DNA of 64,000 nt. It comes from an uncultured bacterium. Lineage in GTDB: Bacteria > Oederibacteriota > Muellerivitia > Muellerivitales > Muellerivitaceae. The translations under genes were made by a program, and so were the position numbers. This document shows positions 11,728 to 57,023 of the stretch, piece after piece. The stretch is from contig CAZGKT010000001.1 in NCBI GenBank assembly GCA_964525605.1, positions 133,153 through 197,152 of the forward strand, written 5' to 3'. Below the pieces are notes generated by a model. It did no database searches. It was not told where the DNA came from and saw only the letters and a program-made list of their open reading frames with translations. Positions within the stretch are counted from its first letter, which is position 1, and every line of letters starts with the position of its first letter.

Positions 11728-12780
11728 CTATAAACGAGTAATGAGCGAAATGTAATTAATTGACCCGATGGAATTACTTACAAATGCGTAATCAACTTCA
11801 AACAGATAAGCCCATATACCCACCCCCACGGAAGGAGTGAAGTCATCATCATCGAATTGCATTCCTTTTGTTTCAAAACCGCCTCGAATAGCTACGAATT
11901 GTTTATACCAATATTCCAAACCGAGATGATAATTATTGAGAGATTGGCCAGCATAAAGGGTATCCGCATCAAAATTAATCTCAAGGGTACTTACCGGGAC
12001 GGGAGCACCGTTAGTGGTCACCCGTTTACCCAGTTCCTGAGTATAAGAAAGCCCCAGCGTCAAGCTAGGTTGGAGTGTTTGGGTTGGATTGGTGGGGGTA
12101 TTAGACCAAGTCACATATGATCCCCCAGTAATGTCCCGTCCAACTAAACCTATTGCAAATTCCTTGGCTGGTTTAAATATTAAACCAAGATCCGACCCAA
12201 TTCCAAAAGCCGAGGCCCCGGCCGCATCGGTTTTTAAAACCTTAATGGTTCCCCCAATCACTAGCTGATCCGCTACTTTCCATCCGCCTGAAAAAAAACC
12301 AGCCTGATCCGAATAAGAAGTCGTACCAATCACATTGGGACTTGATGCGTTGGTTATTGAAATCCCATCCACACCCAATCGCAGATAACTTATAGCGTAA
12401 GAGCCTGCATCTTTAGTATTGAAAGCAATATTTACAAAGTCGTAACTCTGGAGATCGTTTTCAGCCGCATGCATTGTTGTAATTTCAATATCGTCAATTA
12501 AAGCTAAGCCCGCTGGGTTCCAATATGCCGCCGAAGCATCATTTGCCGCCGCAACAAAAGCCCCTCCCATGGCCAATGGTCTTGCCCCTGCACCTTTGGT
12601 TAAAACTTCGGCGGTGTAATCTGTCGATTGGGCCCGAAGAGTAGCAACCCCTAATCCTAAAAAAATGGCTGACGTAAAAACAGAGATATAAAGTTTTGGA
12701 CCCACTGAACTTCTCCTCTCATGGACCAACAAATTTAGGGGCTTCACAAAAAGTTTATCAACCACCCCTTGAAAATTCAA
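11728..12780 (-). CDS. outer-membrane beta-barrel protein, FadL/TodX/PorV family (paralog 2)
   Basis: 350 aa with a signal peptide. Same N-terminal motif as the 2031..3044 protein ('GARPLAMGGAFVAAANDASAAYWNPAGLA'). Clearly paralogous. Confidence 0.6.
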   Translation of the reverse strand: MNFQGVVDKLFVKPLNLLVHERRSSVGPKLYISVFTSAIFLGLGVATLRAQSTDYTAEVLTKGAGARPLAMGGAFVAAANDASAAYWNPAGLALIDDIEITTMHAAENDLQSYDFVNIAFNTKDAGSYAISYLRLGVDGISITNASSPNVIGTTSYSDQAGFFSGGWKVADQLVIGGTIKVLKTDAAGASAFGIGSDLGLIFKPAKEFAIGLVGRDITGGSYVTWSNTPTNPTQTLQPSLTLGLSYTQELGKRVTTNGAPVPVSTLEINFDADTLYAGQSLNNYHLGLEYWYKQFVAIRGGFETKGMQFDDDDFTPSVGVGIWAYLFEVDYAFVSNSIGSINYISLITRL

Positions 12781-27100: not shown

Positions 27101-27313
27101 GTAAGCAAAGAACTTAACCTTAAAACCATCCGAGGCTTGAATACTTGCGGTTTGACCAAGAATGTTTCTTTCATCAGGATGAAAGGACTTGCCAAAATCC
27201 CAGTTAGGATTGTAAAACCGGAAACCCGCTCCTAAGAGAGTAATAAAAACAAGTATGATAAATGTTGGATTATTCCAACGTCTCAAGACCGATAAATTGC
27301 TTTTTCGGGCCAC
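21152..27313 (-). CDS. giant (2053 aa) polytopic membrane protein: N-terminal GT-C (TIGR03663/PMT-like) module, Pro-rich linker, C-terminal DUF2298 'YYY'-like module
   Basis: N-terminal part has an early-loop 'FHPDERN' acidic motif like the 12988 protein, with >12 TM helices and a soluble domain. Pro-rich segment aa ~905-990 ('ATQSPPPPDKLQAEKTLPAIVPPIGGKLPPASAASSSVTDVNAPPVQAPATVPGLP', nt ~24346-24601). C-terminal half repeats the DUF2298 signature 'GGEAGMDFGFLASIVRGETFPPQNMWMAGQPIGYPYYFGH' (aligns to the YYY motif of the 847-aa protein). C-terminus 'PALMGWDSHVHEWVG..IYETTDLGLAKRMLDAYGVRLVMVG' aligns with the 847-aa protein C-terminus. No internal stops over 6.2 kb. Confidence 0.65.
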   Translation of the reverse strand: MARKSNLSVLRRWNNPTFIILVFITLLGAGFRFYNPNWDFGKSFHPDERNILGQTASIQASDGFKVKFFAYGQLPVYLYRATGELISTPSFFNSFFPNQAFLAAFFYWAFLISLFAGIGWLFPRKKFKIPSFLIASGVFLLVLFIKFVPVFSAWFDFLNDWPLKGANFCLDAILFFGVSALLSDFIGLEWLGLPIYIAAGLTFLLGVIPFFLPDAFARTFGSMAFALVVGAAFTWFSWESRWGRLLQMALGIWAIFASFSHYGLQYTGYSDCMIIGRIWAAFFSTLTILVIYWFLNKVYENKPLALLGSAFFAFSVVSIQVCHYCITESFITLMLVVIALGAYEVSRQGSWKNYLLVGAAFGLSMAAKTSSLYYLFMILIGHLVYLSKTTEKDWLKLDHKNRDDQSLNNILAALFLAGGTGALVGAGYKLKGVIRDLCPLNPNGSIGIWIVLFLSLAGMAAVLFVWGVSKFRVLRAQVPLWLRLSSAGALSFLIFCLLSPWSLLDYQGFMNSMNYEWSVVSDAGACYVLQFKDTPRYIFHLQNLISVELWWPLGITAVLGMVWVLGRFVLQLFQPVSSGAILPAPFLKNKGFRFILPELILLSWFIPYFAFIGGWNTKFIRYMVPLAPVFCIFAAIFLWNVFDRLPKNLERFIKPALLALTVGGSLFYSMAYMHVYRYAHPWLDSSGWIYKNIPLGSKIYNEAWGDGLPVDLNPQQDSRLDRPMNPGLYQLQDLTPYELHGFPTDDSPVKKNYYANMIPQADYIAISSKKLWYTLTDETPEFRPHGFNAYPVTSRYYRALWAGLLGYKMLHEFHNFPSLLGWAHPDDMAEESFSVYDHPRVYIFKKVEQVTPERILEILNSDDYVRGITRDQMRAITPENVDDFISKHNQALEQAGLLQKLNNLSAPATQSPPPPDKLQAEKTLPAIVPPIGGKLPPASAASSSVTDVNAPPVQAPATVPGLPDTQTLKVLQDLADHPVVENDIMNLPPRPEEKTGYQCRAWFTWLALLVVLGWLVLPLTLRILSPISAGAYSLSKVLGFLVFTWVVWFMTSLKITHFTAGACWVWFLLLTGLSVYGYWRDRKVIKDFYKRLGRVWLIQEGVFVFAFIAFTFVRLYSSHVHDPSGEGYNGGGEAGMDFGFLASIVRGETFPPQNMWMAGQPIGYPYYFGHLMMGILSKTLGLVPAVTYNLSLITLFALIFSSAFGLAYVLSGRLSGGWVAGFLCAMASNLTGVKQYLAAINQCIVAHNLSALNGITYDFFGPSRVIPNSINEFPYFSVLYGDMHSHTLAMPFDMLLWGVVASIYLSPAPKLFSWKGDWFKFLVAGFLMGGLVFLNTWDILTGLAIIGITLLVRGLVVLNGKTIVKGSGMVFSILVLAFTLLGWWTLIMPGVDQQALGGSTFYLILFLGLGFLASVLWLYLQKTTRLLSKHLLFIAVGVAGILVTAGLFWIPNFLRFTPQQNKILWVLPSIRTDLNDFIGIYGFFLSILLMSFVLAYSKEILLWVGKAKPEKRFLKNLPDKAFDFLSGLLSPKDPVRGILSLGFFSLMVVWGASWVHWSEPQGKVFFSQLLASVAAILLVLAVQLKTRWEIWLAEAAVVLLWIVVLSLQGIHLYQDMALTLGLGLCSVLWLLGFFYLGLAVKVIKDRPLSFTYILTALLFLVLAVLELFAVSEFLGGDWMRNNSLFKFGIHAWMLASIAVGALIPKMIDFILGWLKTAKKETLVSKRVLVAVAGVLLFLILELIFFNFADSLQTPITYIINIVVVAGLLIWRLTTSTLKKTADWVLSLGLGGMSIFVSIVSLLPQGSFGSLLNLIQHWSNILNVEFLLPGSLAALSVTLIAFLWEGQKNMGAKLAFRCWSTLVLILAIAVSIYPLAASIRKCHGFFESTRLKWVGYVESPTLNGLEYMHRSNPGDDAAIRFLNDHVPNQPCLMEFVGAGYNSWGSRFSIFTGIPALMGWDSHVHEWVGKQLDTDIYNRKAAVDQIYETTDLGLAKRMLDAYGVRLVMVGTIERNGAGGKAGYPTLGLAKFANFLPLIYKNPEVEIYYNPPPVRN

Positions 27314-31752: not shown

Positions 31753-33711
31753 GTGGTATTTAAAAGAAACCAGCCCCTCTCCGCAATCACTTTACCCGGT
31801 ACCGTAAACTTAAATTCGTCGCTTCCAGTTAGTCCCCGTCCGGCCAGTTTGTATATAACCCTCGGAGTTAGCCTAGCGGCCTTTTTGATACCATTTATTG
31901 TTTATTTGGTAACCCTCAATCCTGCGCTTTTTAGGAACGACTCACCAGAGGTTGTGGTTGGTTGTGTGGGGCTGGGAATCATCCATGCGCCCGGGTATCC
32001 CCTCTTCATTCTCATCGGAAGGTTGTTCTCGTTATTTCCCATCGGCAACCCGGCCATGACGCTTAACCTCTTTGCGGCCTTCCTGGGCGGCTTCGCCACT
32101 CTTCTGTTCTTTCTTAACGCACGCCTTTTTTTGAACCGTCCCTCATTTTTTGACCTCACCTCCCCATCCCCGACTCATATGGAACTAATCTGCCTATTCT
32201 CCGCTTTAAATTTCGGCCTCTCCCAAACCTTCTGGAGCAACTCACTGGTTTCCAAGGGAGGCATCTATGTTTTGCAAATCGTCCTGGAACTTTCGCTCGT
32301 TCTTACCACCCAAATTTTTCTCGCAAAGGAGAAAAAACCCAAACCCAGTATTTTTTTATTGTTTCTATTTATTTTCGCGTTGGGGTTCTGCAACCACTGG
32401 CCCACCCAAGCGTTTTTGGGGTTTCTCGTGGCGTCGGCAGCATTATTTTCCCGGGCAAATAAACAAAAACTTGATCTCTCCCCAAAGCAAATCATTTTAG
32501 GATTTTCCCAATCGATTTTCGCCCTCAGCCTTTACCTTTATTTACCCATTCGTGCATTTGCAAAACCCATCATCGATTTTGGTGCACCCACGAATCTTTT
32601 TCGCTTTTTGGAAACAATTACGCGAATGAACTATCTAAAGGTGGAAACCCTAGCGACTGCCCCTGTCGGATCCTATCTGTCATTGTTTTATAAAATGGAA
32701 TATATCTCCAACCACACCTTGAGAGAATTCTGTCCGTTTTTCCTGTTTTTCGTTTTGGCGGGAAGTTATTTTCTGTTCAAACGGGACAAACCATTGTGTC
32801 TTTCTGCCGTAGGTTTGATGGCACTCGTGCTTGTTACCAATATTTTTTATCTTCAGGCCACTCCCATTGAATATTGGCATATCGCCGATCATTTACTAAC
32901 AAATAACTGGGTCATCGGATTTTTGGGGTGTATCGGTTTATTTTCTCTCTTTTCCAAAATTAACCGCTTTGGAAAACACCTTCTTTTATTTTGCTTACTC
33001 GCGATGGTTCCTTTGGTGTACCTCAACGGCATCCAGGCCAACAACCAAACCCGGCAATTTCTTTATGTCGGCTACGGTCTTACCGCTCTCAAATCATTGC
33101 CCCTTGACTCCATTTATTTCTCGGAGAATGATTACGATTACTTCTCAGCTCTCTATCTAACGGAAACCCTCCAGTTACGCCCTGACATCCATTTAATTCT
33201 CACGCCTTTTTTAGACAAGGTTTATCAGTTTGATAACGCGTTAGAACGCGTCAAACCTTTATTTGCAAAACAAAGTGATGTGTTCAGCAAAGAACAAGTC
33301 TACAGATGTGTCACGAACACCGATTTTGGCCATCCTCTTTATTGCACTTTTCCGGACGCCTACTTTTCAACCTCTTATTTAGCCTCGCATTCACGATTAG
33401 CCTTTGAGCCACATGACCTTTTGACCCATATCCTCAACCCAAGTGAAAAACCCATTCCAAAAAGTGATTTCTATTTCTTGCGTGACTTTCAGGAACACTA
33501 CCTCGACCCGGAAATATTTAATCCAAACGAGATCAACGGGCTGCTGAAAGAAATTTGCGCTTACCCACTGCTCAATGCAGCTAAATATGAAACAGTATTT
33601 GGAAATACCCAACACCGGGATTGGTATTTCGTCTCGGCCCTCGAACTAATCAGTGAACCAAATTTCTTCAATACTGTCATACGAGAATACAAAAATAAAA
33701 CAACCCGTTAA
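31753..33711 (+). CDS. DUF2723 / TMEM260-like GT-C polytopic membrane protein (putative protein O-mannosyltransferase family)
   Basis: 652 aa. First loop 'RNDSPEVVVGCVGLGIIHAPGYPLFILIGRLF' resembles the conserved 'HPPGYPL' segment of DUF2723 proteins. ~11 TM helices followed by a C-terminal soluble domain. Confidence 0.55.
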   Translation: MVFKRNQPLSAITLPGTVNLNSSLPVSPRPASLYITLGVSLAAFLIPFIVYLVTLNPALFRNDSPEVVVGCVGLGIIHAPGYPLFILIGRLFSLFPIGNPAMTLNLFAAFLGGFATLLFFLNARLFLNRPSFFDLTSPSPTHMELICLFSALNFGLSQTFWSNSLVSKGGIYVLQIVLELSLVLTTQIFLAKEKKPKPSIFLLFLFIFALGFCNHWPTQAFLGFLVASAALFSRANKQKLDLSPKQIILGFSQSIFALSLYLYLPIRAFAKPIIDFGAPTNLFRFLETITRMNYLKVETLATAPVGSYLSLFYKMEYISNHTLREFCPFFLFFVLAGSYFLFKRDKPLCLSAVGLMALVLVTNIFYLQATPIEYWHIADHLLTNNWVIGFLGCIGLFSLFSKINRFGKHLLLFCLLAMVPLVYLNGIQANNQTRQFLYVGYGLTALKSLPLDSIYFSENDYDYFSALYLTETLQLRPDIHLILTPFLDKVYQFDNALERVKPLFAKQSDVFSKEQVYRCVTNTDFGHPLYCTFPDAYFSTSYLASHSRLAFEPHDLLTHILNPSEKPIPKSDFYFLRDFQEHYLDPEIFNPNEINGLLKEICAYPLLNAAKYETVFGNTQHRDWYFVSALELISEPNFFNTVIREYKNKTTR

Positions 33712-33914: not shown

Positions 33915-34033
<119 letters not shown>

Positions 34034-34129
34034 ACATCGAGATCGTTAACTGTTATTAGCAGTTAAAAAGATTGATTGAAATACTATCCTTGAACCAAAG
34101 TGGATTAGGAATTGCGGTGAAGATGAAAC

Positions 34130-37163
<3,034 letters not shown>

Positions 37164-37370
37164 CATGCTTCTTCGCCACCGCATAAGAATTCACTAATGC
37201 ACTCGGTTCAGCTAATAATAGTATTTCAATCAATTGTCAAAGAACCGCCCCGCTTTTAAAAAGCGGTTCTGGCCATCAGCCAGAAGATACTTTCACTCAA
37301 GAAGTAAAAGCTCCGTGAATTTCTAGCAATAAAAATTCACGCAACCTTCACTCGAAGCCACCACCATTTA

Positions 37371-37446
37371 TGGTGGAGATGACCGGGATCGAACCGGTGA
37401 CCCCCTGCTTGCAAAGCAGGTGCTCTCCCAACTGAGCTACATCCCC
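37371..37446 (-). tRNA. tRNA-Ala (anticodon TGC), in the 16S-23S spacer
   Basis: Revcomp 'GGGGAUGUAGCUCAGUUGGGAGAGCACCUGCUUUGCAAGCAGGGGGUCACCGGUUCGAUCCCGGUCAUCUCCACCA'. Cloverleaf with G3:U70 and a CCA end. Confidence 0.9.
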
Positions 37447-37475
37447 CCGGATCTAACCAGAAGCCCACGCATAGA

Positions 37476-37552
37476 TGGTGGGCCTAACTGGAGTCGAACC
37501 AGTCACCTCGCCCTTATCAGGGGCGCGCTCTAACCAACTGAGCTATAGGCCC
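37476..37552 (-). tRNA. tRNA-Ile (anticodon GAT), in the 16S-23S spacer
   Basis: Revcomp 'GGGCCUAUAGCUCAGUUGGUUAGAGCGCGCCCCUGAUAAGGGCGAGGUGACUGGUUCGACUCCAGUUAGGCCCACCA'. Confidence 0.9.
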
Positions 37553-37712
37553 ATCCCAGTTTGGCGCAGACAGGCAAAAAAATGCCCTCAACTTTAAAAG
37601 AACCGATTCGGTATCGGTCTCTCAAAACTAAATAGTGCTCAACTTGTTTAGGTATCCACTTGGAGTTACGTTAAGGCGCACCCTAAATAGGGTTCCCCTA
37701 ACATGTTCTCCA

Positions 37713-39262
<1,550 letters not shown>

Positions 39263-39578
39263 GAATTTGAGGCTCTAAAAACTCAAACTACTATTGACTA
39301 GCACCCAAACTTATTTCGTAAGCACTATTTAGTTTTCAAAGACCGATCACAGACAAGCATCCATACGATGCTTACCCCACCGGAGACAACAATATTCGCC
39401 GGTGCCGTAAGCACCGCAATCGAAGCCAACTTACATTCGATTGTGTGGGTATCGTATTTAAAAGAACAACTTCACCGCTCACCAGAGGAGCAGGGGCCAC
39501 AAGCCATAGTGGCCGGGGAATGTGTTATACAAAAATAGCTCTTCCCCGTCAACAATATTTTACATAATCTTTAAATAT

Positions 39579-45368: not shown

Positions 45369-47648
45369 TCATTCGACTTGTCGGTAATCTTTCAAAGCTC
45401 CTTTGCACAAACTTCCGACGTCAATGGATTTACCATAAACCATTCCTCCATTGCCTGGTGCCATTCTTAAATAACACCCGAGGGCCCGTGCAGCACTTTT
45501 TTTGTCTCCCGCGCTTAAGTCAACGCGTCTTTCAATCTCATACCCCCATCCCCACTCAGGACAACGTTTTAATAATAGTTTAGCTTCTTCTAATCCCTCG
45601 CGAACATTATCTGGATTCGATTCCACCAACCGAATAATTTTTTCCTGCAACCCCGGCAAATCCTTTAACGGGAAGGAATGTGGGGATGGCGTTTCCTCAA
45701 CAAGATACACTGTGCAATTTTCAAGGCAAAGAAGGGGGTTGGCATAGTGCTTCCAAAATTCGATGTATGAAACCTCCGGTATCCCAGTTACCTCAAATCC
45801 CTTCTCCTTCCCCGACATCATGACCGCCTCTTCCCTTTGATACAGGATGTATTTAACACCTTCTTCCTTTAATCGTCTGGCCAATCCCTCTGCCGTCTGA
45901 GCACTTGCCGCCCACTTGAAAAGAATTGGTTCTTTCCAAAAGAAATCAACATACGACATTCGGCACAGGGGATAGGTTTGGAAAACCCCAAAGGCCAAAA
46001 CCTTATCCCGCGGAGAGGAGTTATTTTCTATTTCGCGATAAGCAGCATAGGTATCCAAGTTAAAAGAATAATTTCTTTTAAGGCGAACCAACGAATCTTC
46101 CATTCCGATAGCCGTGGCATAGGGAGCGGTCGTTTGAATTTGCGTGAAAAGAGTTAACACGAACGAAAAAATGATCCCCACGAAAAATATTAATTTCGCC
46201 TTCGATCCCCCGTCCCGAAAGGCCTCGCCCCAAAGAAAAGTGGCCAGAACCAATAATGCCAAGCAACCACCCGATCCATGTCTGAGGTTCGTACAAAGTA
46301 GAGCCCAGATCCCAAAATAAATTAAAGTGAATATGATCAATAGAAAAATTCTTTTTTCTCTAGTTTTAATCCATACCCCCCATGGCAAGGACATAAAAAC
46401 CAATGGCGTCCAGGAAGCCCCCAATCCATTTTCAGGGGTAAAAAAAACAAGCCAAAGCCGCTTTAACGATTCAAAAATATTTTCGCCGAAAATCCTTCCC
46501 GTGTCGGTCCAAAGCGCCATTTCCATAGAGGGATCAAACCCTGGAGGTCCACCGAAAACACCTGTCCCGAGAGGATAAACAGGGTTCCCATTGGCCATTC
46601 CATTTCGTAAATACCAGGGTAATGGGCAAAGAACAAAAACAGCAAATAACACCCAATTCATCTTTGTTTTAAATACTCCCGGCTTTGCAAGCAAAAGCAA
46701 TGCGGTTACCCCCACCATCCCCAACAGCGCCGTGTATTTCGTGGCAATAGCCGCGCCCATAAAAAAGAACCCGTTCAGAAGCCAAACCTTTTGGCGCGGT
46801 TTTTCAATAAATTCCAAAAGCGAGATCAGGGATAAAATCTCAAACAGAGCCAAATGTCCCTCGACATATCCCCATGCAAACAATGCCAAAAAGAAGGGAC
46901 AGGTTAAAAAGATGCAGGGCCCTAGATACGCGGGAAATCCTTTGGAAGCGGGATATACCATTAAAATCCAAACGGTCAATCCTACTGAGATGGCCATGGA
47001 AGCTTTCGCCATAAATTCTCCGCCCATAGCCCAAAATCCGGCCCAAATCATTTCAACGAATTTGGGCATATCCCCTGTGTGATTTGTCCAATGAATGGGG
47101 AGCGAGTGAAGTCTCACCACTTCGCCTGCAAAGCGGAAATGATCCAATACCGCGTCCCAAATTAAAGGGGGTGATAAAAACTCAAACATCCAGACACAAA
47201 GAATGAAAATTCCACCCCCGATCACCCAGGGTTTCAGAACCGGAATTTTAAAATTTTTAACCCGGGATACAAAATCAAATAATCCTCGGGGAACGAAGGG
47301 CAGAAAAAAACAAATAGCTGTCAGGGGAAATAAAAGTCCATTAACCGCCCATCCAAACGAATAACATGAAAACATGCACAGGACCGCGGTATGGGCAAAA
47401 GGATCTCGAAGTTTTGAATCCAAAGAGCCAAGAAAAAGTCTCGAGATTGAAGAGGCCCACCCGCACCAGCCAAGCCAAACCGGGATGGCCATTAAGATCG
47501 CTGTCAGACGAATACGCCAATAGTCCCCCGCGAGGCTCGGATCCCAGGGAGTGTCCAAAAGTATGCGAAACGAGGGATGTAAAAATGAAAATTTTGTTGC
47601 CAAAAGAAAAAGAACGAAAAAGAAGAGTGAAAAAAGCGTTCGGGTCAA
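45369..47648 (-). CDS. large polytopic membrane protein with C-terminal soluble domain (possible GT-C / lipid-linked glycosyl- or aminoarabinosyl-transferase-like)
   Basis: 759 aa, ~14 predicted TM helices over the first ~500 aa, then a ~250-aa soluble domain. No firm motif assignment. Similar overall architecture to the other GT-C-like proteins in the window. Confidence 0.45.
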   Translation of the reverse strand: MTRTLFSLFFFVLFLLATKFSFLHPSFRILLDTPWDPSLAGDYWRIRLTAILMAIPVWLGWCGWASSISRLFLGSLDSKLRDPFAHTAVLCMFSCYSFGWAVNGLLFPLTAICFFLPFVPRGLFDFVSRVKNFKIPVLKPWVIGGGIFILCVWMFEFLSPPLIWDAVLDHFRFAGEVVRLHSLPIHWTNHTGDMPKFVEMIWAGFWAMGGEFMAKASMAISVGLTVWILMVYPASKGFPAYLGPCIFLTCPFFLALFAWGYVEGHLALFEILSLISLLEFIEKPRQKVWLLNGFFFMGAAIATKYTALLGMVGVTALLLLAKPGVFKTKMNWVLFAVFVLCPLPWYLRNGMANGNPVYPLGTGVFGGPPGFDPSMEMALWTDTGRIFGENIFESLKRLWLVFFTPENGLGASWTPLVFMSLPWGVWIKTREKRIFLLIIFTLIYFGIWALLCTNLRHGSGGCLALLVLATFLWGEAFRDGGSKAKLIFFVGIIFSFVLTLFTQIQTTAPYATAIGMEDSLVRLKRNYSFNLDTYAAYREIENNSSPRDKVLAFGVFQTYPLCRMSYVDFFWKEPILFKWAASAQTAEGLARRLKEEGVKYILYQREEAVMMSGKEKGFEVTGIPEVSYIEFWKHYANPLLCLENCTVYLVEETPSPHSFPLKDLPGLQEKIIRLVESNPDNVREGLEEAKLLLKRCPEWGWGYEIERRVDLSAGDKKSAARALGCYLRMAPGNGGMVYGKSIDVGSLCKGALKDYRQVE

Positions 47649-48008: not shown

Positions 48009-49103
48009 CTACTTCATCTTCTCTTTCACCGCCAAAGCGTCCGGGTTATCACTCTGGAAAGTAAAGGCGGTTTTTAAATAAAAAGTCGCGTCCTTTTTTG
48101 ATCCTTTGTCCAGCAGAGCTTGTGCGACTGCCGCATAGTATGTGGCTCTCATGGACGCGAAATCCTTTCCAACGATTCCGCTTTTGTGAACTTCTTGGAA
48201 AAATGCGCTAGCTTCCTGCCCGAGTTGGGCGATTTTATTATCTTGAATCCGGGCCGGTACTATTTCGGTCTTTAGTTTCACAAGAGAAGCCTGAGCGTCC
48301 AAGGGTTCATCCCACCATCCCTTTCCCTTCTTTTTAGGCGCCGCTGCCACTGCAACGGGAGTCGCGGCAGAGACCACCACCGCCGGTGCCGTGACGGGCA
48401 CAGGAGTCGCAATTCGAAGAGAGCTTCCAGCCCAAGTACCCGCGGCCGAAACCACGATTTGATCCACATACAGATCCTGCGTCTCGTCCCAATCAAAAGC
48501 ATGGTCCGCTGTCGCTCGATCCTTGGGGGTTTCCTTCGCGGAACAAAGAATCTCGTTCGGGGTAACCGCCGCAAAAAGCTGGGGCGACATAACTTCTAAT
48601 ACCGGCTTCATTGTACCGGCCAGATAGGTGTAACCCCGAACCACCTGGTTTCCCTTCAAGTCATCCCGTTGATAAATGAGAAAGACGTGCCTTTTTTCAG
48701 TGTCCGTGAAGACCTTGACCCAGAGAATGGGACCGCCGTCATCCGAGAAATTTTTGATGTACTTCTTCTGGGTCGGATCGTAAAAACAAACCGCCAAGGT
48801 CTGGCTGTGGGGTTTGTCTAAATCACCGACCGGAACAGCCTGGCGGTATATCAAAATCAAATCCCTTTGGTTCAAGCCCCTCACATCCTCGAAATCGAAC
48901 AAGCCCTTGCTTTCCAGTTTCCCATCGTCGGAAAGCCATGGAAGATTCTCAAGTAAATGATCCTTGGGTAGAACCGAATCGGTCGGGGAATCCTGAGCCC
49001 AAACCCTGACCGGCAAAGTTGTCCACGCCAAAACTGCCAAAACGATGATTCCCTTTATCCCCTTGCACATAAACCCCTCCGGTATAAATCTGCGATTGGC
49101 CAC
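48009..49103 (-). CDS. secreted hypothetical protein with Pro/Ala/Val-rich linker and Lys-rich patch
   Basis: 364 aa with a signal peptide (GIIVLAVLAWTTLPVRVWAQ). Internal 'PVPVTAPAVVVSAATPVAVAAAPKKKGKGWW' low-complexity linker. C-terminal helical domain. No family recognised. Confidence 0.5.
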   Translation of the reverse strand: MANRRFIPEGFMCKGIKGIIVLAVLAWTTLPVRVWAQDSPTDSVLPKDHLLENLPWLSDDGKLESKGLFDFEDVRGLNQRDLILIYRQAVPVGDLDKPHSQTLAVCFYDPTQKKYIKNFSDDGGPILWVKVFTDTEKRHVFLIYQRDDLKGNQVVRGYTYLAGTMKPVLEVMSPQLFAAVTPNEILCSAKETPKDRATADHAFDWDETQDLYVDQIVVSAAGTWAGSSLRIATPVPVTAPAVVVSAATPVAVAAAPKKKGKGWWDEPLDAQASLVKLKTEIVPARIQDNKIAQLGQEASAFFQEVHKSGIVGKDFASMRATYYAAVAQALLDKGSKKDATFYLKTAFTFQSDNPDALAVKEKMK

Positions 49104-49104
49104 A

Positions 49105-50121
49105 TTATCCCTTTATCCAGCCCTCTTGTTGATAAAAACTTGCCGCATCCCGCACGCCTTTTTCAAGGTTCCATTGTGGCTTGAAACCCAATTGGGCGCG
49201 AATCTTTCCGTTATCACAGGTCCAATGGGTATAAAAAGCCTCTTTTACCTTGTCCACATTCAGCATGGAGGCTTTCCCGCTTATTTTCTCAGCCAATTCT
49301 CCCGCATAAGCGACAATCCGAACCACCCCCATGGGAATCGGGATGGTTCGAAATTTCCGCCTCATCGCCTTGCCGATTTCCCGGGTCAGCTCCTGCCAAC
49401 TGTAGGGTATGCCGTCCGACACGAAATAAACCTGACCTACCGCCTTAGGCGAATGGCCCGCCAATAGAATGGCGTTCACTAGATCTTGCACATGGACGAA
49501 ACTGACTTCCTGCTTTAAGGATGGGAGCAAAACCCAGCCATCCTTCACCATTTTGAAATAGGCGAAAATATCGGTTTCACGCGGCCCATACACAGCGCCT
49601 GGCCGGAGAATCGTCAAGGGAAGTCTTTTTCCGTAAGCCTGGGCTAATTCCTCTCCCTTGAATTTCGTCACACCATAAAGCGAAACAGGCTGACAGGGTA
49701 AATTTTCTTTGAGGGGCTTTCCGTCCCGGCTAGGTCCCGCCGCAGACAAAGAGCTGACATAAACAAGCCTTTTCAGCCCTTTCACTTTCAACGCCGCCTC
49801 GCACACATTCCGTGTTCCCTCGGCGTTGACCTCGTTTAATTTTATAAAGCTAGAACCTCGTAATATTCCCGCCAAATGGTAAATGACCTTAACGCCTTGA
49901 GCGGCCTTCACCACCGAATCGCGATCCGTGACATCCCCATAGCACAATTGAATTTGCGGCCCCACTTTGAAAGGAATTTTGCTTGTCTTGCGAACTAGCA
50001 GGTTTACCTTCACGCCGTTTTGGGCCAGTTTTTCCGCCAAGTGGCTTCCCACAAAGCCGCTTGCGCCGGTCACTAATACTGGGGATGAAAATTTCATGGT
50101 AAGTCCTGGTTTATTAGGCAA
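49105..50121 (-). CDS. NAD(P)-dependent epimerase/dehydratase-family (extended SDR) oxidoreductase; candidate 3-ketosphinganine/ceramide reductase
   Basis: 338 aa: N-terminal 'VLVTGASGFVGSHLAEKL' Rossmann motif and an extended-SDR 'Y..xK'-type catalytic region ('LYGVTKFKGE'). Divergently adjacent to an SPT-like gene. Confidence 0.8.
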   Translation of the reverse strand: MPNKPGLTMKFSSPVLVTGASGFVGSHLAEKLAQNGVKVNLLVRKTSKIPFKVGPQIQLCYGDVTDRDSVVKAAQGVKVIYHLAGILRGSSFIKLNEVNAEGTRNVCEAALKVKGLKRLVYVSSLSAAGPSRDGKPLKENLPCQPVSLYGVTKFKGEELAQAYGKRLPLTILRPGAVYGPRETDIFAYFKMVKDGWVLLPSLKQEVSFVHVQDLVNAILLAGHSPKAVGQVYFVSDGIPYSWQELTREIGKAMRRKFRTIPIPMGVVRIVAYAGELAEKISGKASMLNVDKVKEAFYTHWTCDNGKIRAQLGFKPQWNLEKGVRDAASFYQQEGWIKG

Positions 50122-50296
50122 AAAGTTTGAACTGGCAAGCGGGCATCATTATAATGCCCCCGCTTCTGGCAACAACCTTTCGAACCGTGTTTATACAAAA
50201 TTTGCCCCTCCGATCGGTTTAAGACCCGCTCCCAATGGGTAAGCCGGAAAATTCAAGCTGTATTGATTAAACCAACCCAAATCATGAAGAGGCCCC

Positions 50297-51478
50297 ATGG
50301 ATATTTTTGATAAGGCGAACAATTGGACTGCGGCAGATGACGTGCGGAAGGCCGGCCTTTATCCCTACTTCCGCCCCAACACTTCCAAAATGGGGACTGA
50401 AGTCACCATTGGCGGCAAAAAAATGATCATGGTGGGCTCTAACAATTACCTGGGACTGGTTACCCATCCTGAAGTGCTTGAAGCCATGGTTAATGCCATC
50501 AATAAGTATGGTTCCGCCTGCACCGGCTCCCCTTTCCTGAACGGCACCCTCGATATCCGAGTGGAATTGGAAGAAAAATTGGCCGATTTTGTCCACATGG
50601 AAGAGACCCTTGTCTATTCCACCGGCTTCCTGGCTAACCTGGGAGCGCTCTCCACTATTGCCACCCGGGGCGATTACATCATTTCCGACCGCGATAACCA
50701 CGCCTCCATCGTCGATGGCCAAAAGCTTTCCTACGCCAAGACGGTCAAGTACCTTCATAACGACATGGAAGACCTGGAGCGGGTCCTTTCGAACCATCCG
50801 GATGTCCCCAAACTTATCGTGACCGATGGGGTCTTCTCCATGGGAGGGGATGTTTGCCACCTTCCCAAGATCGTCGAGCTTAAGAAAAAATACAAAGCCC
50901 GGCTGATGGTGGACGAGGCCCATTCCATCGGCGTTCTCGGCCCCCAGGGGGATGGTACCGGCCCCCATTTCGGCGTTCAAAAAGATGTGGATATGGTCAT
51001 GGGTACCTTTTCCAAGTCCCTGGTCTCCATCGGCGGCTTTATCGCCTCTACACACAAGGTCATCGATTATCTGCGCCACAATAGCCGCCCGCTCATCTTC
51101 ACGGCCAGCCTATCCCCCGCCGACACGGCCGCCGTTTTGAAGAGCCTGGAAATCATCAAGCGCGAACCCGACCGCCAGAAACGCCTTTGGGAAATCATCA
51201 AGCGTATGCGCACCGAGTTCAACGCCATGGGTTACAACACCCTCAACACCAATTCCGCCATCATTCCCCTCATGGTGGGAGACAACTTGAAAACCTTCGC
51301 CATGACCAAGGAACTGGGCGAAATGGGGGTCTTCGCCACACCCGTGGTATCGCCCGCCGTGCCGCCAGAACAAACCCTCATCCGCACTTCCTACACCGCC
51401 ACCCACACCGACGCCCAGTTGAGCCATGTATTGGAGGCGTTCCGCACGGTGGGCAAGAAGTATGGGGTTATCCACTAA
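50297..51478 (+). CDS. spt: alpha-oxoamine synthase family PLP enzyme, serine palmitoyltransferase-like
   Basis: 393 aa. PLP-lysine region 'GTFSKSLVSIGGF'. 'MVDEAHSIGVLGPQGDG'. N-terminal 'VGSNNYLGL' and C-terminal 'IRTSYTATHTDAQLSHVLEAFRTVGKKYGVIH'. These track the Sphingomonas SPT blocks 'LGTYNYMGM', 'LVDEAHSMGFFGPNGRG', 'GTFSKSVGTVGGF', '..CSICAEHTPAQIQTVLGMFQAAGRAVGVIG' more closely than BioF/Kbl. Confidence 0.75.
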   Translation: MDIFDKANNWTAADDVRKAGLYPYFRPNTSKMGTEVTIGGKKMIMVGSNNYLGLVTHPEVLEAMVNAINKYGSACTGSPFLNGTLDIRVELEEKLADFVHMEETLVYSTGFLANLGALSTIATRGDYIISDRDNHASIVDGQKLSYAKTVKYLHNDMEDLERVLSNHPDVPKLIVTDGVFSMGGDVCHLPKIVELKKKYKARLMVDEAHSIGVLGPQGDGTGPHFGVQKDVDMVMGTFSKSLVSIGGFIASTHKVIDYLRHNSRPLIFTASLSPADTAAVLKSLEIIKREPDRQKRLWEIIKRMRTEFNAMGYNTLNTNSAIIPLMVGDNLKTFAMTKELGEMGVFATPVVSPAVPPEQTLIRTSYTATHTDAQLSHVLEAFRTVGKKYGVIH

Positions 51479-51593
51479 CCAGGTTGCGGGAAGGTAAACT
51501 TGCCTTCCCTGCTCCCTTAAAAAATTGTCCCCGAAGTCAAATTTCTATAGAATCTTGTCCTGTCTATTTAATTTTTTATAGCGAGGGAAAAAC

Positions 51594-52742
51594 GTGGCTA
51601 TCACGATTAAGACAGTTGAAACCAAGCAGGATATCGAAACCTTTCTTCATCTACCGTGGAAAATCTATGTCTCGCCGGATGGAAAAAGAGACCCCAACTG
51701 GGTGCCACCCTTCCTCGACGACCAGCGCAGTCTGCTCAGCCCGCAAAAAAACCCCTACCACCAGCACAGCCGAACCAAACTCTTCATGGCCTTCAACGAT
51801 AAGAACGAGCTGGTGGGCCGCATCTCCGCCAGCGTGGACGACAATTTCAACCGGTTCTGGACCTCCAAGGTCGGTTTTTTCGGATGGTTCGAGTGCGTGA
51901 ACGACCAGACCGTGGCCAACGCCCTATTCGCCGAGGGGGAGAAGTTCTTCAAGTCGGAGGGTATCAGCGAAGTTCGGGGCCCGGCCAGTTTCACCTCCAA
52001 CGACGATTATTTCGGTTTTCTCTTAGAAGGATATGATTCCCCGGCTCGCATTGCCATGACCTACAACCCGCCCTATTACCTCCAACTAACCGAAAAAGCT
52101 GGTTACACCAAGGCCAAAGATCTTTACGCCTGGTACCTTTCCGCGGAAATTGACATTCCAGAGCGTATCGCGAAAATCGTCGATCGCACCATGAAACGTG
52201 AAAGAATCACGATCCGTCCCCTCAACATGAAGCGGCTCTTCGAGGATGCGAAGATTCTTCAAGAACTCTACAACAAGATCTGGGAAAAGAACTGGGGCTT
52301 CGTGCCCATGACCGACGAGGAATTCAAATATCAGGTCAAGAAACTCAAGGACATCGTCTGGGCCGATTTCGTGGTTTTCGCCGAGGTCGATGGCAAGGCA
52401 GTTGGCTTCAATCTGGTGGTACCGGATATCAACCAGGTTCTGATCAAAATGGACGGCGAGCTCTTTTCGTTGAAAACACCCTTCGCCCTGATCACCTTCC
52501 TCACGAATATCGGAAAAATCAACGATACCCGCGAAATGGCCATGGGAATCCATCCCGATTACCGTAAAAAGGGGTTGGAAGCCGTTCTCTATCTGGAAGG
52601 GCTTAAAACCGGCAAGAAACGCAAGATCAAGGGGGGGGAGCTGTCCTGGACCCTGGAAGACAACGAGGGCATCAACAGCGGCATCACGGCCATGGGTGGA
52701 AAGATCGTCAAAAAGTACCGTATCTACTCAAAAGCCATTTAG
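51594..52742 (+). CDS. GNAT/FemAB-fold N-acyltransferase-like protein (~380 aa); candidate bacterial ceramide synthase
   Basis: 382 aa. Two tandem acyl-CoA N-acyltransferase-like halves (a pattern seen in FemAB/bCerS-type proteins). Located 115 bp downstream of the SPT-like gene on the same strand. The family assignment is from fold-level impression, not a specific motif. Confidence 0.4.
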   Translation: MAITIKTVETKQDIETFLHLPWKIYVSPDGKRDPNWVPPFLDDQRSLLSPQKNPYHQHSRTKLFMAFNDKNELVGRISASVDDNFNRFWTSKVGFFGWFECVNDQTVANALFAEGEKFFKSEGISEVRGPASFTSNDDYFGFLLEGYDSPARIAMTYNPPYYLQLTEKAGYTKAKDLYAWYLSAEIDIPERIAKIVDRTMKRERITIRPLNMKRLFEDAKILQELYNKIWEKNWGFVPMTDEEFKYQVKKLKDIVWADFVVFAEVDGKAVGFNLVVPDINQVLIKMDGELFSLKTPFALITFLTNIGKINDTREMAMGIHPDYRKKGLEAVLYLEGLKTGKKRKIKGGELSWTLEDNEGINSGITAMGGKIVKKYRIYSKAI

Positions 52743-52761
52743 CTAACCTTTTAAAACAAAA

Positions 52762-52794
52762 AAAGCCATTCCCTTCCCGGGGATGGCTTTTTTT
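52762..52794. terminator. bidirectional terminator between convergent genes
   Basis: 'aaaaaaagccattcccttcccggggatggcttttttt': imperfect 9-bp stem flanked by A7/T7. Confidence 0.5.
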
Positions 52795-52830: not shown

Positions 52831-55350
52831 CTATCGAAGAATCAACACCTTCTTAAGCCACTTATCTGATGGGGTGGTCACAACGGCGTAGAAAAGGCCA
52901 TTGCTGATCTTGGAGAGGTCGAAATCATCCAGGATGAGGGTATAGGCCCCGGCGGACACGTATGGCCAATTACGCTGATAGATCTTCCGGTATGCCGTGG
53001 TGAAAATCTTGACCGTTACGTAATCGTGCGGCTGGCTGAAATAAACAGCAACCTGGAGGGGTCCATTCCCCTTCACCGGGTTGGGATAAATAACCGGCGG
53101 TTGGTTGGTCGCAATAGTTGGTGACGGCGTCGCGGTTAGCGTGACGGTAACGGTTACAGTTTGTGTTATCGATAAGGTCGGGCTAGGCGTGAAGGTGAAG
53201 GTATTTGTGGGGGTAGAGGAATAGGTCCAGGTCGAGGTCACAGTGGGTGTATTGGTTATCGTGCTGGTAACGGTCCATGTGGGGGTAAAGGTGGGAGTTA
53301 GAGTAACGGTGGGCGTTAAAGAGATGGTCGGGGTATTGGTGATAGTGGGGGTATTGGTCGCCGTGAGTGTATTGGTCACGGTTCCCGTATTGGTGGGCGT
53401 CATGGTCCAGGTGGGGGACAGGGTTTCCGTAGGTGAGGGGGTATAAGTAAGGGTATTGGTGATCGTGGGGGTATTGGACGAAGTGGCTGTATTGGTGGGT
53501 GTTCCGGTCCAAGTGGAGGTATTTGTATTTGTTGGCGAAAGAGTAAATGTCGAAGTGTTGGTAATCGTAAGAGTCGAAGTCACCGTGGGAGTGTTGGTGG
53601 ATGTCGTAGTGGAAGTCGCTGTCGAGGTCGCAGTGGGGCTTAGGGTATCCGTGATAGTAGAAGTTACCGTTGGCGTGTCTGAAACCGTAAAGGTTGAGGT
53701 AACGGTGGATGTAACTGTTGGAGTGCTGGTAAAGGTAAATGTCGGGGACAGGGTCGAGGTTAAGGTATTGGTGGGGCTTAGCGTAATGGTAGGAGTGTTG
53801 GTGACGGTATTGGTAAAGGTCATCGTGAGGGTATTTGTTATGGTGCTTGTCTGGGTAATGGTGGGCGAAAGCGTGGGGGTACTGGTGTTGACCGTCCCGG
53901 GACAAAAACTGGCATAGATCGAATCCCACCCGTTATTACCACCGTTCACCGTGAAATAGGAAACAGGGCTACTGAACCCCGAAGATGCATTCGGAAAGGT
54001 AAAACCCGGGTTTAAAACGTAGCCGATGACCCCCCAGGTGGTGGCCGGGGAGTTCTGGTAATTAAAGACGAAACTCAGAGGCGCGTCAAATTCGTAGGTC
54101 AGCCAATAGTTCCCCGCCGCCAGGTAGGTTGGGTTCATCTGCAGGATGTTCCATTGTCCCGGGGTTACCATCATATAAGTCACGGATTGGGCCTGCAGGT
54201 TTCCCATAACCCAGGTGGTCCCAGATGAAGCCGCACTATATATGGCGGATTGAATGTAAGCTCCGGTGTCCAAACTGTTGTTCGGGACATAGAGCGACAT
54301 CGTATAAACCGTCCCCGCCTGAGGCAGGTTATAAAAGTCGGCCCGCATTTCCTCTTGGACAGCCGTAGCCGGGCCTCCAGCTGAAATTGTATCCCCAAAA
54401 TAAGTTACAGCGCTCCCGCATGGCGGGGTTAAGGAAAGATTGGGAGTGACTGTATCAGTTTGAGACGGAGTCTCGGACATCGTTGGGACAGGCGTATAGG
54501 TGAAGGTTAAAGTCGGAGTGTTGGTATAAATCGTCCCGGTCATTGTTGCGGTTGATGTGATGGTGGGCGTCGGTGAAACGGTGGGCGTGTTGGTCGGAGT
54601 GATGGTGTTGGATACTGTCGGGGTGCTGGTCGGAACAATACAATAGTTGGCGTAAATGGGCACATTACCCGCGCCATAGGCGATGCTTGCCGGGGCGGAA
54701 CTGGGTAGACTCCCAAAGACTTGGGATGCGGTCGTATAAACTAAATATCCATTCGTCCCTGTCGCGTAATTCAGGCTGTACCCGTTTGTGTTGTACATAT
54801 AAACCAACCAATAGAACCCCGAACTTAACTCGGTCGGTGTTATGAAAAATCCATTCCAGCCGGCTACGACCGGTTGAGGTGCTGATTGAACGACGAGAGT
54901 CCCCAGACTGCTGACGCTCCCAGAGTAGATGCCGACGATCAAAGACGCTCCCCCGGAATTGCTCCAAGCCGTGAGGCTGTAAACCGAAGCCGGTTTGCTC
55001 AAAGTATATAAACTTCCGTAAATTCCAGGAGCGGTAGCCGCACTCCCATTGTTTAATCCGGTCGCGTTATTCCCAAAGAAAGTCGCCGAAGCTCCGCAGG
55101 GGGGAGTAAGTGTTAAATTCTGGGTTGGTGAATCGGTGGGGGTATTCGTCGGCAGGTTGGTGTTTGTGATGGTCGGGGTCATTGTGATCGTTGGAGTATT
55201 GGTCATCGTTCGGGTCATTGTGGGCGTCGAGGAATTCGTGAAAGTCCGCGTTACCGTGGGCGTGGAAGTATTGGCTGCAAAACCGTTGGTCGACACGAGT
55301 AAAAGTAATCCCGTTAACAAAACCAAAGACGTAAACCGCAAGGTGGTCAT
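52831..55350 (-). CDS. secreted Thr/Pro/Ser-rich mucin-like surface protein with T9SS-type C-terminal sorting domain (Por_Secre_tail-like)
   Basis: 839 aa with a signal peptide ([17 protein letters not shown]). Two lectin/Ig-like globular segments separated by long 'TPT(V/I)T(N/S)T' low-complexity tracts (hundreds of Thr). C-terminal ~85 aa '[79 protein letters not shown]' matches the T9SS CTD pattern (YPNP ... G.Y.... G.Y...V....... K.L). Confidence 0.7.
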
Positions 55351-55463: not shown

Positions 55464-57023
55464 CTAATTGTCCGACCGGCGGAGCACCTGGCCTGGGTAA
55501 CCGTTCAAGAAGTATCCCTTCCCGAAAACCTGTTGGCCGTTGACTAATACCATCCTCATGCCGGTGGGCGGAACCCCGGGATTAACGGCCGTGGCATTGT
55601 CCCCGATCGTCTTGTAGTCGAAGACTACCACATCTCCCCAGAAACCGGGTTTCAACTGGCCCCTATCTTTCAATCCCATCAACCCAGCCGGTTCCTTCGT
55701 GAGCCGTTCAATCGCCTCGGAAAGACGAATGACACCCTGATCCCTGACGTAGGTTCCCAAAAGACGGGGAAAGGCACCCACATCCCTGGGGTGAGGGATG
55801 GTGGCTGCCGAATCGGACCCAAAAAGCACGTAGGGCGATTGGATCTTCTTGATCAGCCCCTCTTCCGAAAGACCGTGGTAACAGATTTTGACATCCTTTC
55901 CGTTTTCAAGGAGCAGGGCCAGAATCGTGTTCTCCTCCGATAGATTGCGTTGTTGGGCCAGTTCTTTGAGGGTTAATCCTAGTGCGGAACGGGAAGATTT
56001 ATTTCGCACCATCGTGATTTCGATTTTGTCCCCACCGCCGTATTCCTGAAGCCGGCGCTTAATTCGGGCCATCGCGTCGTCCGCCTTGTCTTCTTTGTGG
56101 TAGAAAGACCAGCGGGATGTATCCTCAGGCAAGTAAAGGAACTGATAGAGGGGGATTTGAACCTCGTTGCCCCAAAAGTCATAAGGGTAAACCGTGGCAT
56201 AGGCCTGTAAGCCCCGTCCCCTCGCCTCTTCCAACAAACGAAGCCCGCTTTCCGTCTGGTCCCAGTTGCTGGGCAATTTGAAGAGCAAATGTTGAATCAC
56301 CACAGGAACCTTATCCGTCTCCCCCAAGTGAAGGGCCTCTTTGATGGCATCGAGCACGCCCGAACGGTAATTGCGGATATGGGTGTAATAAACCGCGTGG
56401 GGATATTTGGAAAGTACGGATGCGAGATCTTCTAATTCGGCGCTTTGGCACCATTCCCCCGGCTCGTAGCCCAACCCGCTGGAAAGGCCGAAAGCCCCGG
56501 CTTTGAGACCCAATTCTAAAAAGTTCTTCATCTTGGTCATGGCAACGGCATCGGCCGGCTTTTGCTTTTGGGTCTTTACGAACCAATCCCTCACGCTTCC
56601 CTGGCCTAACAGGGTCCCCAGGTTGATCAGACCCCTGTGTTTTTGCAATTTTTGGAGGTTTTTTTCGACATCTAGGATCGAAAAGCCGCAATTACCCGCC
56701 AAGCCGGAAGTGACCCCCCTGCGGATGGCCTTTTGCTGTTCCGTGAAGGACCAGAGCAGGTCATTGTGGCAAAGCAGGTCGATAAAGCCCGGGGCCACCA
56801 CAAAGCCCTTTACATCCACTTCTTTCTTGGCCGTATAGGGTGGCAAAACCCCAACCGCGGCGATCTTGCCGTCTTTAATGGCCAAGTTGCCCTGGTAGGG
56901 CGGAAGACCGGACCCATCCATGATGGTCCCGTTCAAGAGGACGAAGTCATACTGCACTGGCTCGACGGCAAAGGCCGAGGCCGAGAGGACGAGAACGATG
57001 ATGATAAAGAAAAACTTGTTCAA
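55464..57023 (-). CDS. amidohydrolase-superfamily enzyme, N-acyl-D-amino-acid deacylase (D-aminoacylase) family, secreted
   Basis: 519 aa with a signal peptide. 'DFVLLNGTIMDGSG', 'GFIDLLCHND' (metal-binding HxH-type start of a TIM-barrel amidohydrolase). Length and C-terminal beta-sandwich insert typical of D-aminoacylases. Confidence 0.7.
   Translation of the reverse strand: MNKFFFIIIVLVLSASAFAVEPVQYDFVLLNGTIMDGSGLPPYQGNLAIKDGKIAAVGVLPPYTAKKEVDVKGFVVAPGFIDLLCHNDLLWSFTEQQKAIRRGVTSGLAGNCGFSILDVEKNLQKLQKHRGLINLGTLLGQGSVRDWFVKTQKQKPADAVAMTKMKNFLELGLKAGAFGLSSGLGYEPGEWCQSAELEDLASVLSKYPHAVYYTHIRNYRSGVLDAIKEALHLGETDKVPVVIQHLLFKLPSNWDQTESGLRLLEEARGRGLQAYATVYPYDFWGNEVQIPLYQFLYLPEDTSRWSFYHKEDKADDAMARIKRRLQEYGGGDKIEITMVRNKSSRSALGLTLKELAQQRNLSEENTILALLLENGKDVKICYHGLSEEGLIKKIQSPYVLFGSDSAATIPHPRDVGAFPRLLGTYVRDQGVIRLSEAIERLTKEPAGLMGLKDRGQLKPGFWGDVVVFDYKTIGDNATAVNPGVPPTGMRMVLVNGQQVFGKGYFLNGYPGQVLRRSDN

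Follow-up and report, generated by a model that had tools for sequence, protein, structure and literature searches.

A candidate ceramide locus in an uncultured bacterium

Do three neighboring genes of an uncultured bacterium encode the enzymes of a bacterial ceramide pathway, or are they unrelated genes that happen to lie side by side? We addressed this question on a stretch of 64,000 nucleotides from contig CAZGKT010000001.1 (assembly GCA_964525605.1, positions 133,153 to 197,152). This stretch is henceforth referred to as the 64-kb window, and positions follow the numbering of the whole window, not of the feature under study. Three open reading frames (ORFs) at 49105-52742 encode an extended short-chain dehydrogenase/reductase (SDR) on the minus strand, followed on the plus strand by a pyridoxal 5'-phosphate (PLP)-dependent alpha-oxoamine synthase and a protein with tandem GCN5-related N-acetyltransferase (GNAT) domains. 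An original prediction, made without database searches, had read the three as a reductase of the CerR family, a serine palmitoyltransferase (Spt) and a bacterial ceramide synthase (bCerS). We find it very likely that the locus is a three-enzyme module for the backbone of bacterial (dihydro)ceramide. The evidence consists of homology to validated families, intact catalytic and cofactor motifs, a tandem-GNAT fold and a gene arrangement that recurs across phyla.

The PLP enzyme groups with serine palmitoyltransferases in sequence comparisons

The candidate spt gene (50297-51478, plus strand) encodes 393 amino acids that match the Pfam family Aminotran_1_2 (PF00155) at 200.6 bits. We compared the protein to 18,950 NCBIfam models. 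The best match was NF047600 (Spt-CFB) with 517.5 bits, and the next family scored 387.5 bits. Kbl and BioF models scored ~383-388 bits, the betaproteobacterial Spt model 378, the alphaproteobacterial Spt model NF047603 322 and the 5-aminolevulinate synthase model 269. Among sequences of the Protein Data Bank (PDB), the best match was the Spt of Sphingobacterium multivorum (SmSPT; 3a2b/8guh), with 409 bits over residues 5-386, followed by a Thermus BioF/Kbl enzyme (285 bits), Sphingomonas Spts (~274 bits) and E. coli Kbl (267 bits). Residues H135, D206, H209, K240 and R363 align with H138, D210, H213, K244 and the conserved arginine of SmSPT. In this alignment K240 occupies the position of the PLP lysine, and the catalytic set of the alpha-oxoamine synthases, which are fold-type I PLP enzymes, is intact (PLP-binding Lys, ring-stacking His, PLP-contacting Asp and His, carboxylate-binding Arg). 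The protein ends in ...AQLSHVLEAFRTVGKKYGVIH, the SPT-like C-terminal tail to which the original prediction had drawn attention.

Phylogenetic placement against Spt, BioF, Kbl and HemA had been proposed as a check, and we computed a neighbor-joining tree of 51 sequences (393 trimmed columns, 50 bootstraps). The tree comprised the GNAT-adjacent Spts of other genomes, SmSPT, the Spt of Sphingomonas wittichii, E. coli Kbl and BioF, and the Thermus enzyme. The window Spt, all the GNAT-adjacent Spts and SmSPT formed one clade with Kbl and BioF outside it in 50 out of 50 bootstraps, in a distance-based tree with a small number of outgroups, HemA and CqsA not among them. The nearest named neighbors of the window Spt are the Spts of Myxococcaceae. 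Judged by these sequence comparisons, the PLP enzyme groups with characterized Spt and not with Kbl or BioF, as had been predicted. The Kbl/BioF identity was ruled out by the margins of ~125-130 bits in the NCBIfam and PDB comparisons together with the tree.

The tandem-GNAT protein is a homolog of bacterial ceramide synthase

The candidate bcerS gene (51594-52742, plus strand, GTG start) encodes 382 amino acids. Domain annotation of this protein yielded a single weak GNAT match in Pfam, no FemAB match in Pfam and no NCBIfam family, and a search of PDB sequences returned nothing significant. Its relatives comprise 3082 proteins at E ≤ 0.001, mostly unnamed or labelled "GNAT superfamily N-acetyltransferase"; a few members of the family match the FemAB-like PF13480. 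From an alignment of 23 sequences, AlphaFold produced a confident model (pLDDT 90.9, pTM 0.88). We compared this model to the PDB using Foldseek. Tandem-GNAT N-acyltransferases were on top, with template modeling (TM) scores of ~0.55-0.62 and E-values down to ~1e-15, whereas FemX and FemA ranked 26th or lower with TM scores of 0.38-0.44. The model confirms a tandem-GNAT fold for the predicted structure.

The validated enzymes of Caulobacter were reached through their published orthologs in S. wittichii, namely Swit_3900 for Spt (CC_1162), Swit_3899 for AcpR, Swit_3897 for CerR (CC_1164, 40% identity) and Swit_3908 for bCerS (CC_1154, 45% identity and 97% coverage) (PMC11324152 Table S2B). We took the S. 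wittichii Spt from PDB entry 2x8u and traced it through the exact protein (P0129) to its locus on the RW1 chromosome (L081). The gene order and Pfam domains of this locus agree with the published Swit numbering at seven genes, including PP-binding in Swit_3899, DAGK_cat in Swit_3903 and LptF_LptG in both Swit_3905 and Swit_3906. Swit_3908 is therefore the 382-aa ORF without Pfam domain at 19091-20239 of L081. The window protein aligns with it end to end (residues 1-380, 32% identity, E 4e-67), and comparison of the family profile of the window protein to Swit_3908 using hhalign gave a probability of 100% (E 4e-74). Residues that are invariant across the family, Swit_3908 included, are for example N227, W230, N233, W234, W352, E355 and N357. 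By the measure of these alignments, the protein is a direct homolog of the experimentally defined bCerS family, in agreement with the predicted tandem-GNAT ceramide synthase of ~380 residues. A FemAB-type transferase, against which a comparison had also been suggested, was ruled out by the homology to Swit_3908 and the poor TM scores of FemX and FemA (~0.4, versus ~0.6 for tandem GNATs).

The divergent reductase resembles CerR

The cerR-like gene (49105-50121, minus strand) encodes an extended SDR of 338 amino acids with a TTG start, a candidate ceramide (3-keto) reductase. On another contig (L084), an independent gene call places the start at an internal ATG, which would give 330 amino acids here (49105-50097). 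The ATG at 50097 is probably the true start. The protein carries the NAD(P)-binding GxxGxxG motif at G19-G22-G25 and the catalytic YxxxK motif at Y149-K153. A signal peptide is not evident at its N-terminus, where the Rossmann motif starts close to residue 15 (close to residue 5 in Swit_3897). The Pfam matches are Epimerase (PF01370, 144.5 bits), 3Beta_HSD (103 bits), NmrA and related families. The best partial match among the NCBIfam models was HpnA (132.7 bits, far under its cut-off), followed by LegB, OleD-type reductases and SdmB, with GalE at 68 bits; many families of sugar-nucleotide-modifying enzymes matched, all at low scores. Swit_3897 likewise has HpnA as its best partial match (72 bits), then OleD-type reductases and SdmB, with GalE far lower. 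The alignment of Swit_3897 with the window SDR covers almost all of both proteins (28% identity, E 7e-33).

SDRs are highly paralogous, and for this reason we built a Hidden Markov Model (HMM) from 31 SDRs encoded beside spt/bcerS in other phyla; the window SDR and the two closely related ones were excluded from it. With 354 bits, the window SDR was at the lower limit of the scores of the training sequences (354-517 bits). Swit_3897 scored 179.7 bits, two non-syntenic extended SDRs of the same loci 103-108, E. coli GalE 94.8, E. coli HldD 65.2 and a classical SDR 15. This is good but not exhaustive evidence that the SDR belongs to an spt-associated reductase family that includes the validated CerR orthologs, in line with the CerR-type reductase that had been predicted to flank spt divergently. 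Measured against this small set of outgroups, the scores of the syntenic-SDR HMM also set the SDR apart from UDP-sugar epimerases, an identity that the original prediction had named as a danger to its reading.

The three genes are adjacent in many phyla

We scanned one genome per species with the 382-aa GNAT protein and found 575 relatives, of which the best 80 loci were used for the analysis of gene neighborhoods. These derive from Myxococcota (Myxococcus, Corallococcus, Archangium), Bacteroidota (Pedobacter, Taibaiella, Sphingobacteriales, Chitinophagaceae), Ignavibacteria/Melioribacter, Zixibacteria, WOR-3, Nitrospirota, Planctomycetota, Gemmatimonadota, Acidobacteria and others. Enough upstream sequence is available in 71 loci; in at least 43 of them, the gene immediately before the GNAT gene, in the same orientation, encodes an Spt homolog. 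All three genes are adjacent in 35 out of 80 loci, from taxa that include Myxococcota, Bacteroidota, Ignavibacteria, Zixibacteria, Planctomycetota and Gemmatimonadota. The SDR gene lies divergently upstream of spt in 26 loci, which is the layout of the window, and downstream of bcerS in 11. The spt-bcerS-SDR arrangement is far beyond chance. The claim that the locus follows the three-gene logic of the bacterial ceramide pathway is thus supported both by this adjacency and by the homology of each protein.

No fourth gene family was found to recur beside the cluster across phyla in the 80 loci, where the neighbors are lineage-restricted, and the genes that flank the cluster in the window (a 364-aa ORF, a PMT_2-like membrane protein and DUF4921) are common only to two close relatives (L001 and L002). 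The conserved unit therefore consists of exactly three genes.

Six myxobacterial loci encode, less than 5 kb from the cluster, a membrane protein of ~300 amino acids with PAP2-like motifs that were recognized by eye (SGH ... HYATD; for example L019, 4532-5485). This protein, which the window lacks, might act as a head-group transferase.

Transcription units

The coordinates of the three ORFs and their divergent and co-directional layout were as predicted, with spacers of 175 nt between cerR and spt and 115 nt between spt and bcerS. From their positions and strands, spt and bcerS look like a two-gene operon, and the SDR gene looks like a separate transcription unit that faces it. The divergent intergenic region (50122-50296) is presumed to be the promoter region of both units. 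It contains sigma-70-like matches on the plus strand (50127-50155, 10/12) and on the minus strand (50172-50145, 9/12), which are weak evidence, and across the scanned region such matches are no more numerous than expected from shuffled sequence. Downstream of bcerS there is a hairpin resembling an intrinsic terminator (52758-52794, AAAAAAAGCCATTCCCTTCCCGGGGATGGCTTTTTTT), with a stem at 52765-52787, an A-run and a T-run on either side and the T-run extending to 52794; a terminator scan reported an inner stem at 52770-52783 followed by the T-run. The hairpin probably ends both the putative spt-bcerS operon and a convergent gene for an 839-aa protein.

Proposed pathway and acyl donor

We infer the substrates, the order of the steps, the lipid product and its head group from homology. 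The Spt would convert L-serine and a long-chain acyl thioester, most likely acyl-CoA, to 3-ketosphinganine. The bCerS homolog, which appears to be co-transcribed with spt, would N-acylate the long-chain base (3-ketosphinganine or sphinganine), and the CerR homolog would reduce the 3-keto group with NAD(P)H to yield dihydroceramide.

A nearby acyl carrier protein (ACP) and acyl-ACP synthetase had been suggested as a further check, and here the outcome was negative. Domain scans detected no ORF with a PP-binding or AMP-binding domain in the 64-kb window. We also searched the window and the 80 loci using tblastn, whose sensitivity for proteins of ~80 amino acids is limited, and obtained no match to the AcpR of S. 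wittichii or the AcpP of E. coli. The locus thus lacks the ACP and acyl-ACP synthetase that are encoded with spt in the AcpR/AasR-dependent ("Rhodobacteria"-type) pathway. This does not contradict the proposed pathway: only the Spts of alpha-, beta- and gammaproteobacteria prefer the acyl-AcpR made by AasR, and those of Bacteroidetes use acyl-CoA, as eukaryotes do (PMC11324152). Because the window Spt falls on the Bacteroidetes/myxobacterial side, the acyl-CoA-using type, the absence of AcpR and AasR is expected, and because there is no dedicated ACP, acyl-CoA is the most likely acyl donor. We found no homologs of the ceramide kinase, the CC_1161-like protein or the fatty-acid hydroxylase of the S. 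wittichii sphingolipid region in the window, and no head-group genes near the cluster.

Order of steps and alternative readings

Acylation probably precedes reduction. Deletion of cerR in Caulobacter leads to the accumulation of oxidized ceramide, and the Caulobacter CerR behaves as a periplasmic protein associated with the inner membrane, whereas Spt and bCerS are cytoplasmic (PMC11087976). A eukaryote-like order is still argued (PMC11324152). At the window locus, the SDR would then reduce 3-ketosphinganine to sphinganine, which the GNAT enzyme would N-acylate. We consider this order rather unlikely. It was the first to be proposed for Caulobacter (Olea-Ozuna et al., as summarized in PMC11324152), bCerS is reported to take sphinganine as well as 3-oxo-sphinganine (PMC11324152 supplement), and the window SDR has no visible signal peptide. 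However, the deletion phenotype and the localization of the Caulobacter enzymes speak against it, and the apparent co-transcription of spt with bcerS, separate from the SDR gene, fits a coupling of Spt to bCerS, although it is no proof of it.

Several observations weigh against a ceramide module. The window Spt, with 517.5 bits, falls below the curated equivalog cut-off of NF047600 (SerpalmtaseCFB), which is 640 bits. The GNAT-adjacent Spts of Myxococcus dinghuensis (515 bits) and Archangium gephyra (511 bits) also fail this cut-off, and those of Pedobacter (715 bits) and Taibaiella (722 bits) pass it. Because the myxobacterial Spts miss the threshold that the Bacteroidota Spts reach, we regard the window protein as lying outside the CFB equivalog group, in a sister Spt branch rather than as a different enzyme. 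Similarity of the SDR to the validated CerR orthologs is modest (28% identity), and the outgroups used to place it were few, namely two enzymes of E. coli, a pair of non-syntenic SDRs and a single classical SDR. The window proteins are linked to the bCerS and CerR of Caulobacter indirectly, through the S. wittichii orthologs. Finally, a gene of the bCerS family occurs without adjacent spt in 28 of the 71 loci, three of which have an Spt-like match elsewhere in the locus. The 28 loci include L003-L006, L009, L011 and L014-L017, with examples from Nitrospirota, Firestonebacteria, WOR-3 and some Zixibacteria. The function of the bCerS family may therefore extend beyond ceramide synthesis: these loci would be explained by a dispersal of the genes, which has been reported for Bacteroidota, or by a family that N-acylates other amines too.

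The position of the Spt below the cut-off also bears on its substrate. If the same three enzymes used an amino acid other than serine, the product would be a sphingolipid-like lipid other than canonical ceramide. Cysteate (capnine/sulfonolipid-type), alanine or glycine (1-deoxy bases) and lysine (the Lys-ceramides proposed for the Black Sea) would be the candidates. Other amino acids have been hypothesized for Spt-like enzymes (PMC11334938), and the cysteate-C-fatty acyltransferases are close superfamily relatives, matching the window Spt in the PDB comparison at 261 bits (28eh) and 227 bits (7u7h). Nevertheless, we find this quite improbable. The window Spt is far closer to the serine-using SmSPT (409 versus 261 bits), and it lies inside a clade with SmSPT and the myxobacterial Spts, which are equally below the cut-off. 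That the whole Spt branch shared with the myxobacteria uses either an amino acid other than serine or an atypical acyl donor is improbable as well. Were it so, the product would be a non-canonical sphingoid lipid of the kind detected in anoxic waters, the genes for which are still unassigned.

It is hardly credible that the three genes are unrelated neighbors encoding a Kbl/BioF-type enzyme, a sugar-nucleotide epimerase and a generic or FemAB-type acetyltransferase: although Kbl and BioF models still give ~385 bits for the PLP enzyme, the SDR has low-score matches to many sugar-nucleotide-modifying families and PF13480 is found in a few GNAT family members, the three-gene adjacency is kept across many phyla, Kbl and BioF fall outside the Spt clade in all 50 bootstraps, GalE and HldD reach 95 and 65 bits in the syntenic-SDR HMM compared with 354 bits for the window SDR, and the GNAT protein is a full-length bCerS homolog that FemX and FemA resemble only at TM ~0.4.

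Comparison with known systems

The ceramide pathway of Caulobacter crescentus was reportedly defined in 2021-2022, by Olea-Ozuna in 2021 and Stankeviciute in 2022. Its genes are spt (CC_1162/CCNA_01220), bcerS (CC_1154/CCNA_01212) and cerR (CC_1164/CCNA_01222). The window encodes the same three enzyme families as Caulobacter and S. wittichii. The S. wittichii bCerS has the same length of 382 amino acids and can be aligned from one end to the other, the CerR homolog is an extended SDR whose partial matches in NCBIfam rank as they do in S. wittichii, and the Spt, an alpha-oxoamine synthase, shares its catalytic residues with theirs. In contrast to both organisms, the window encodes neither a dedicated AcpR nor an AasR, genes for a ceramide kinase or for head groups are missing from the vicinity of the cluster, and the Spt is of the CFB/myxobacterial branch (517 bits with NF047600 versus 322 bits with the alphaproteobacterial NF047603). 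The three genes are contiguous in the window; those of S. wittichii extend over ~12 kb and are interrupted by Lpt, kinase and hydroxylase genes.

We also compared the clusters of Myxococcota, specifically those of Myxococcus dinghuensis (L035), Archangium gephyra (L051) and two Myxococcaceae metagenome-assembled genomes (L019 and L038). They share with the window the nearest Spt branch, a near-identical NCBIfam profile and the position of spt directly upstream of bcerS on the same strand, with identities to the window proteins of ~40% for bCerS and ~53% for Spt. The SDR gene is downstream of bcerS on the same strand in L019, L035 and L038, and no adjacent SDR gene was found in L051; in the window it is divergent upstream of spt, as in the loci of Ignavibacteria, Bacteroidota and Zixibacteria. 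The best solved relative of the window Spt is SmSPT (3a2b, 8guh). Its PLP-lysine, histidine and aspartate residues are kept, but the window Spt stays under the CFB equivalog cut-off that true Bacteroidota Spts reach. The bCerS homolog shares its two-GNAT-domain fold with 5kf1 (glucosamine N-acetyltransferase), 7q3a (MAB_4324), 2wpx (clavulanate tandem GNAT) and 1ozp (the mycothiol synthase MshD). These enzymes have ≤18% identity to it, no significant sequence match and other substrates, and the likeness is therefore one of fold and not of function.

Spt, bCerS and CerR make up a known bacterial ceramide pathway whose genes are often clustered (PMC11334938, PMC11087976). Spt-like genes, often co-localized with bCerS and CerR, were reported in 2024 from metagenome-assembled genomes of 38 phyla, which brought the number of phyla known to have them to 40 (PMC11334938). 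The window locus is a new, unannotated instance of this pathway and leaves the understanding of it unchanged. It adds one more uncultured, lipopolysaccharide-bearing diderm lineage to the likely bacterial producers of sphingolipids, in a compact three-gene form that should be easy to express heterologously.

The comparison also exposes a gap in annotation. No NCBIfam family matched either the window bCerS or Swit_3908, and bCerS has no dedicated Pfam or NCBIfam model; the window protein, from a family with thousands of members, receives at most a weak generic GNAT match in Pfam. CerR has no dedicated model in the two databases either. With no models for bCerS and CerR and with this Spt branch below the cut-offs, standard pipelines therefore report "aminotransferase / GNAT / epimerase" and miss such clusters.

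Other features of the window

The 364-aa ORF (48009-49103, minus strand) starts one base past the stop of the cerR-like gene, and the two are therefore probably co-transcribed. The protein has a signal-peptide-like N-terminus and an Ala/Pro/Val-rich linker, without Pfam or NCBIfam match. Proteins with ~50% identity are encoded at the same position only in L001 and L002, and the gene could be a lineage-specific accessory gene or unrelated to the cluster. One possibility, though an improbable one, is that this putatively secreted protein is a new accessory factor for the handling of the lipid in the envelope.

On the other side of the cluster, the convergent gene (52831-55350, minus strand) encodes an 839-aa Thr/Pro-rich repeat protein with TPT/TNT-type low-complexity runs and a signal-peptide-like N-terminus, for which no Pfam or NCBIfam family was found. 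A high positive GC skew at 52-54 kb coincides with this gene. A 519-aa amidohydrolase is encoded ~2.7 kb from bcerS (55464-57023, minus strand); it also has a signal-peptide-like N-terminus, and members of its protein cluster are labelled N-acyl-D-amino-acid deacylase (JGI). The amidohydrolase gene is near the cluster in L002 too (70% identity) and is not found there in other phyla; a link to the turnover of N-acyl lipids is speculation.

The window contains a complete rRNA operon on the minus strand (33916-39263), with the 16S at 37716-39263, the 23S at 34132-37162 and the 5S at 33916-34031; its tRNAs are tRNA-Ile (37476-37552) and tRNA-Ala (37371-37446), also on the minus strand. The remaining sequence is that of an ordinary diderm chromosome, encoding UvrA, LptD, LptF/G, PorV/PorQ-family proteins, 2-oxoacid:ferredoxin oxidoreductase, RsmB-Fmt-Def and ThiE-ThiG. 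The two PorV/PorQ-family outer-membrane proteins (2031-3044 and 11728-12780, minus strand) score 180 and 87 bits with NF033709 (cut-off 90), and the second has PorV2 as its best match (129 bits). The pair hints at a type IX secretion-like machinery; the closest deposited relatives, L001 and L002, are labelled "uncultured proteobacterium".

Two large adjacent membrane proteins with DUF2298/chlor_Arch_YYY domains are encoded on the minus strand at 18575-21118 (847 aa) and 21152-27313 (2053 aa). Their neighbors encode NHL-repeat beta-propeller proteins, GT2 glycosyltransferases and PMT_2/TMEM260-like proteins of the GT-C type (12988-15489, 31753-33711 and 45369-47648), an unusually dense set of putative envelope glycosylation genes.

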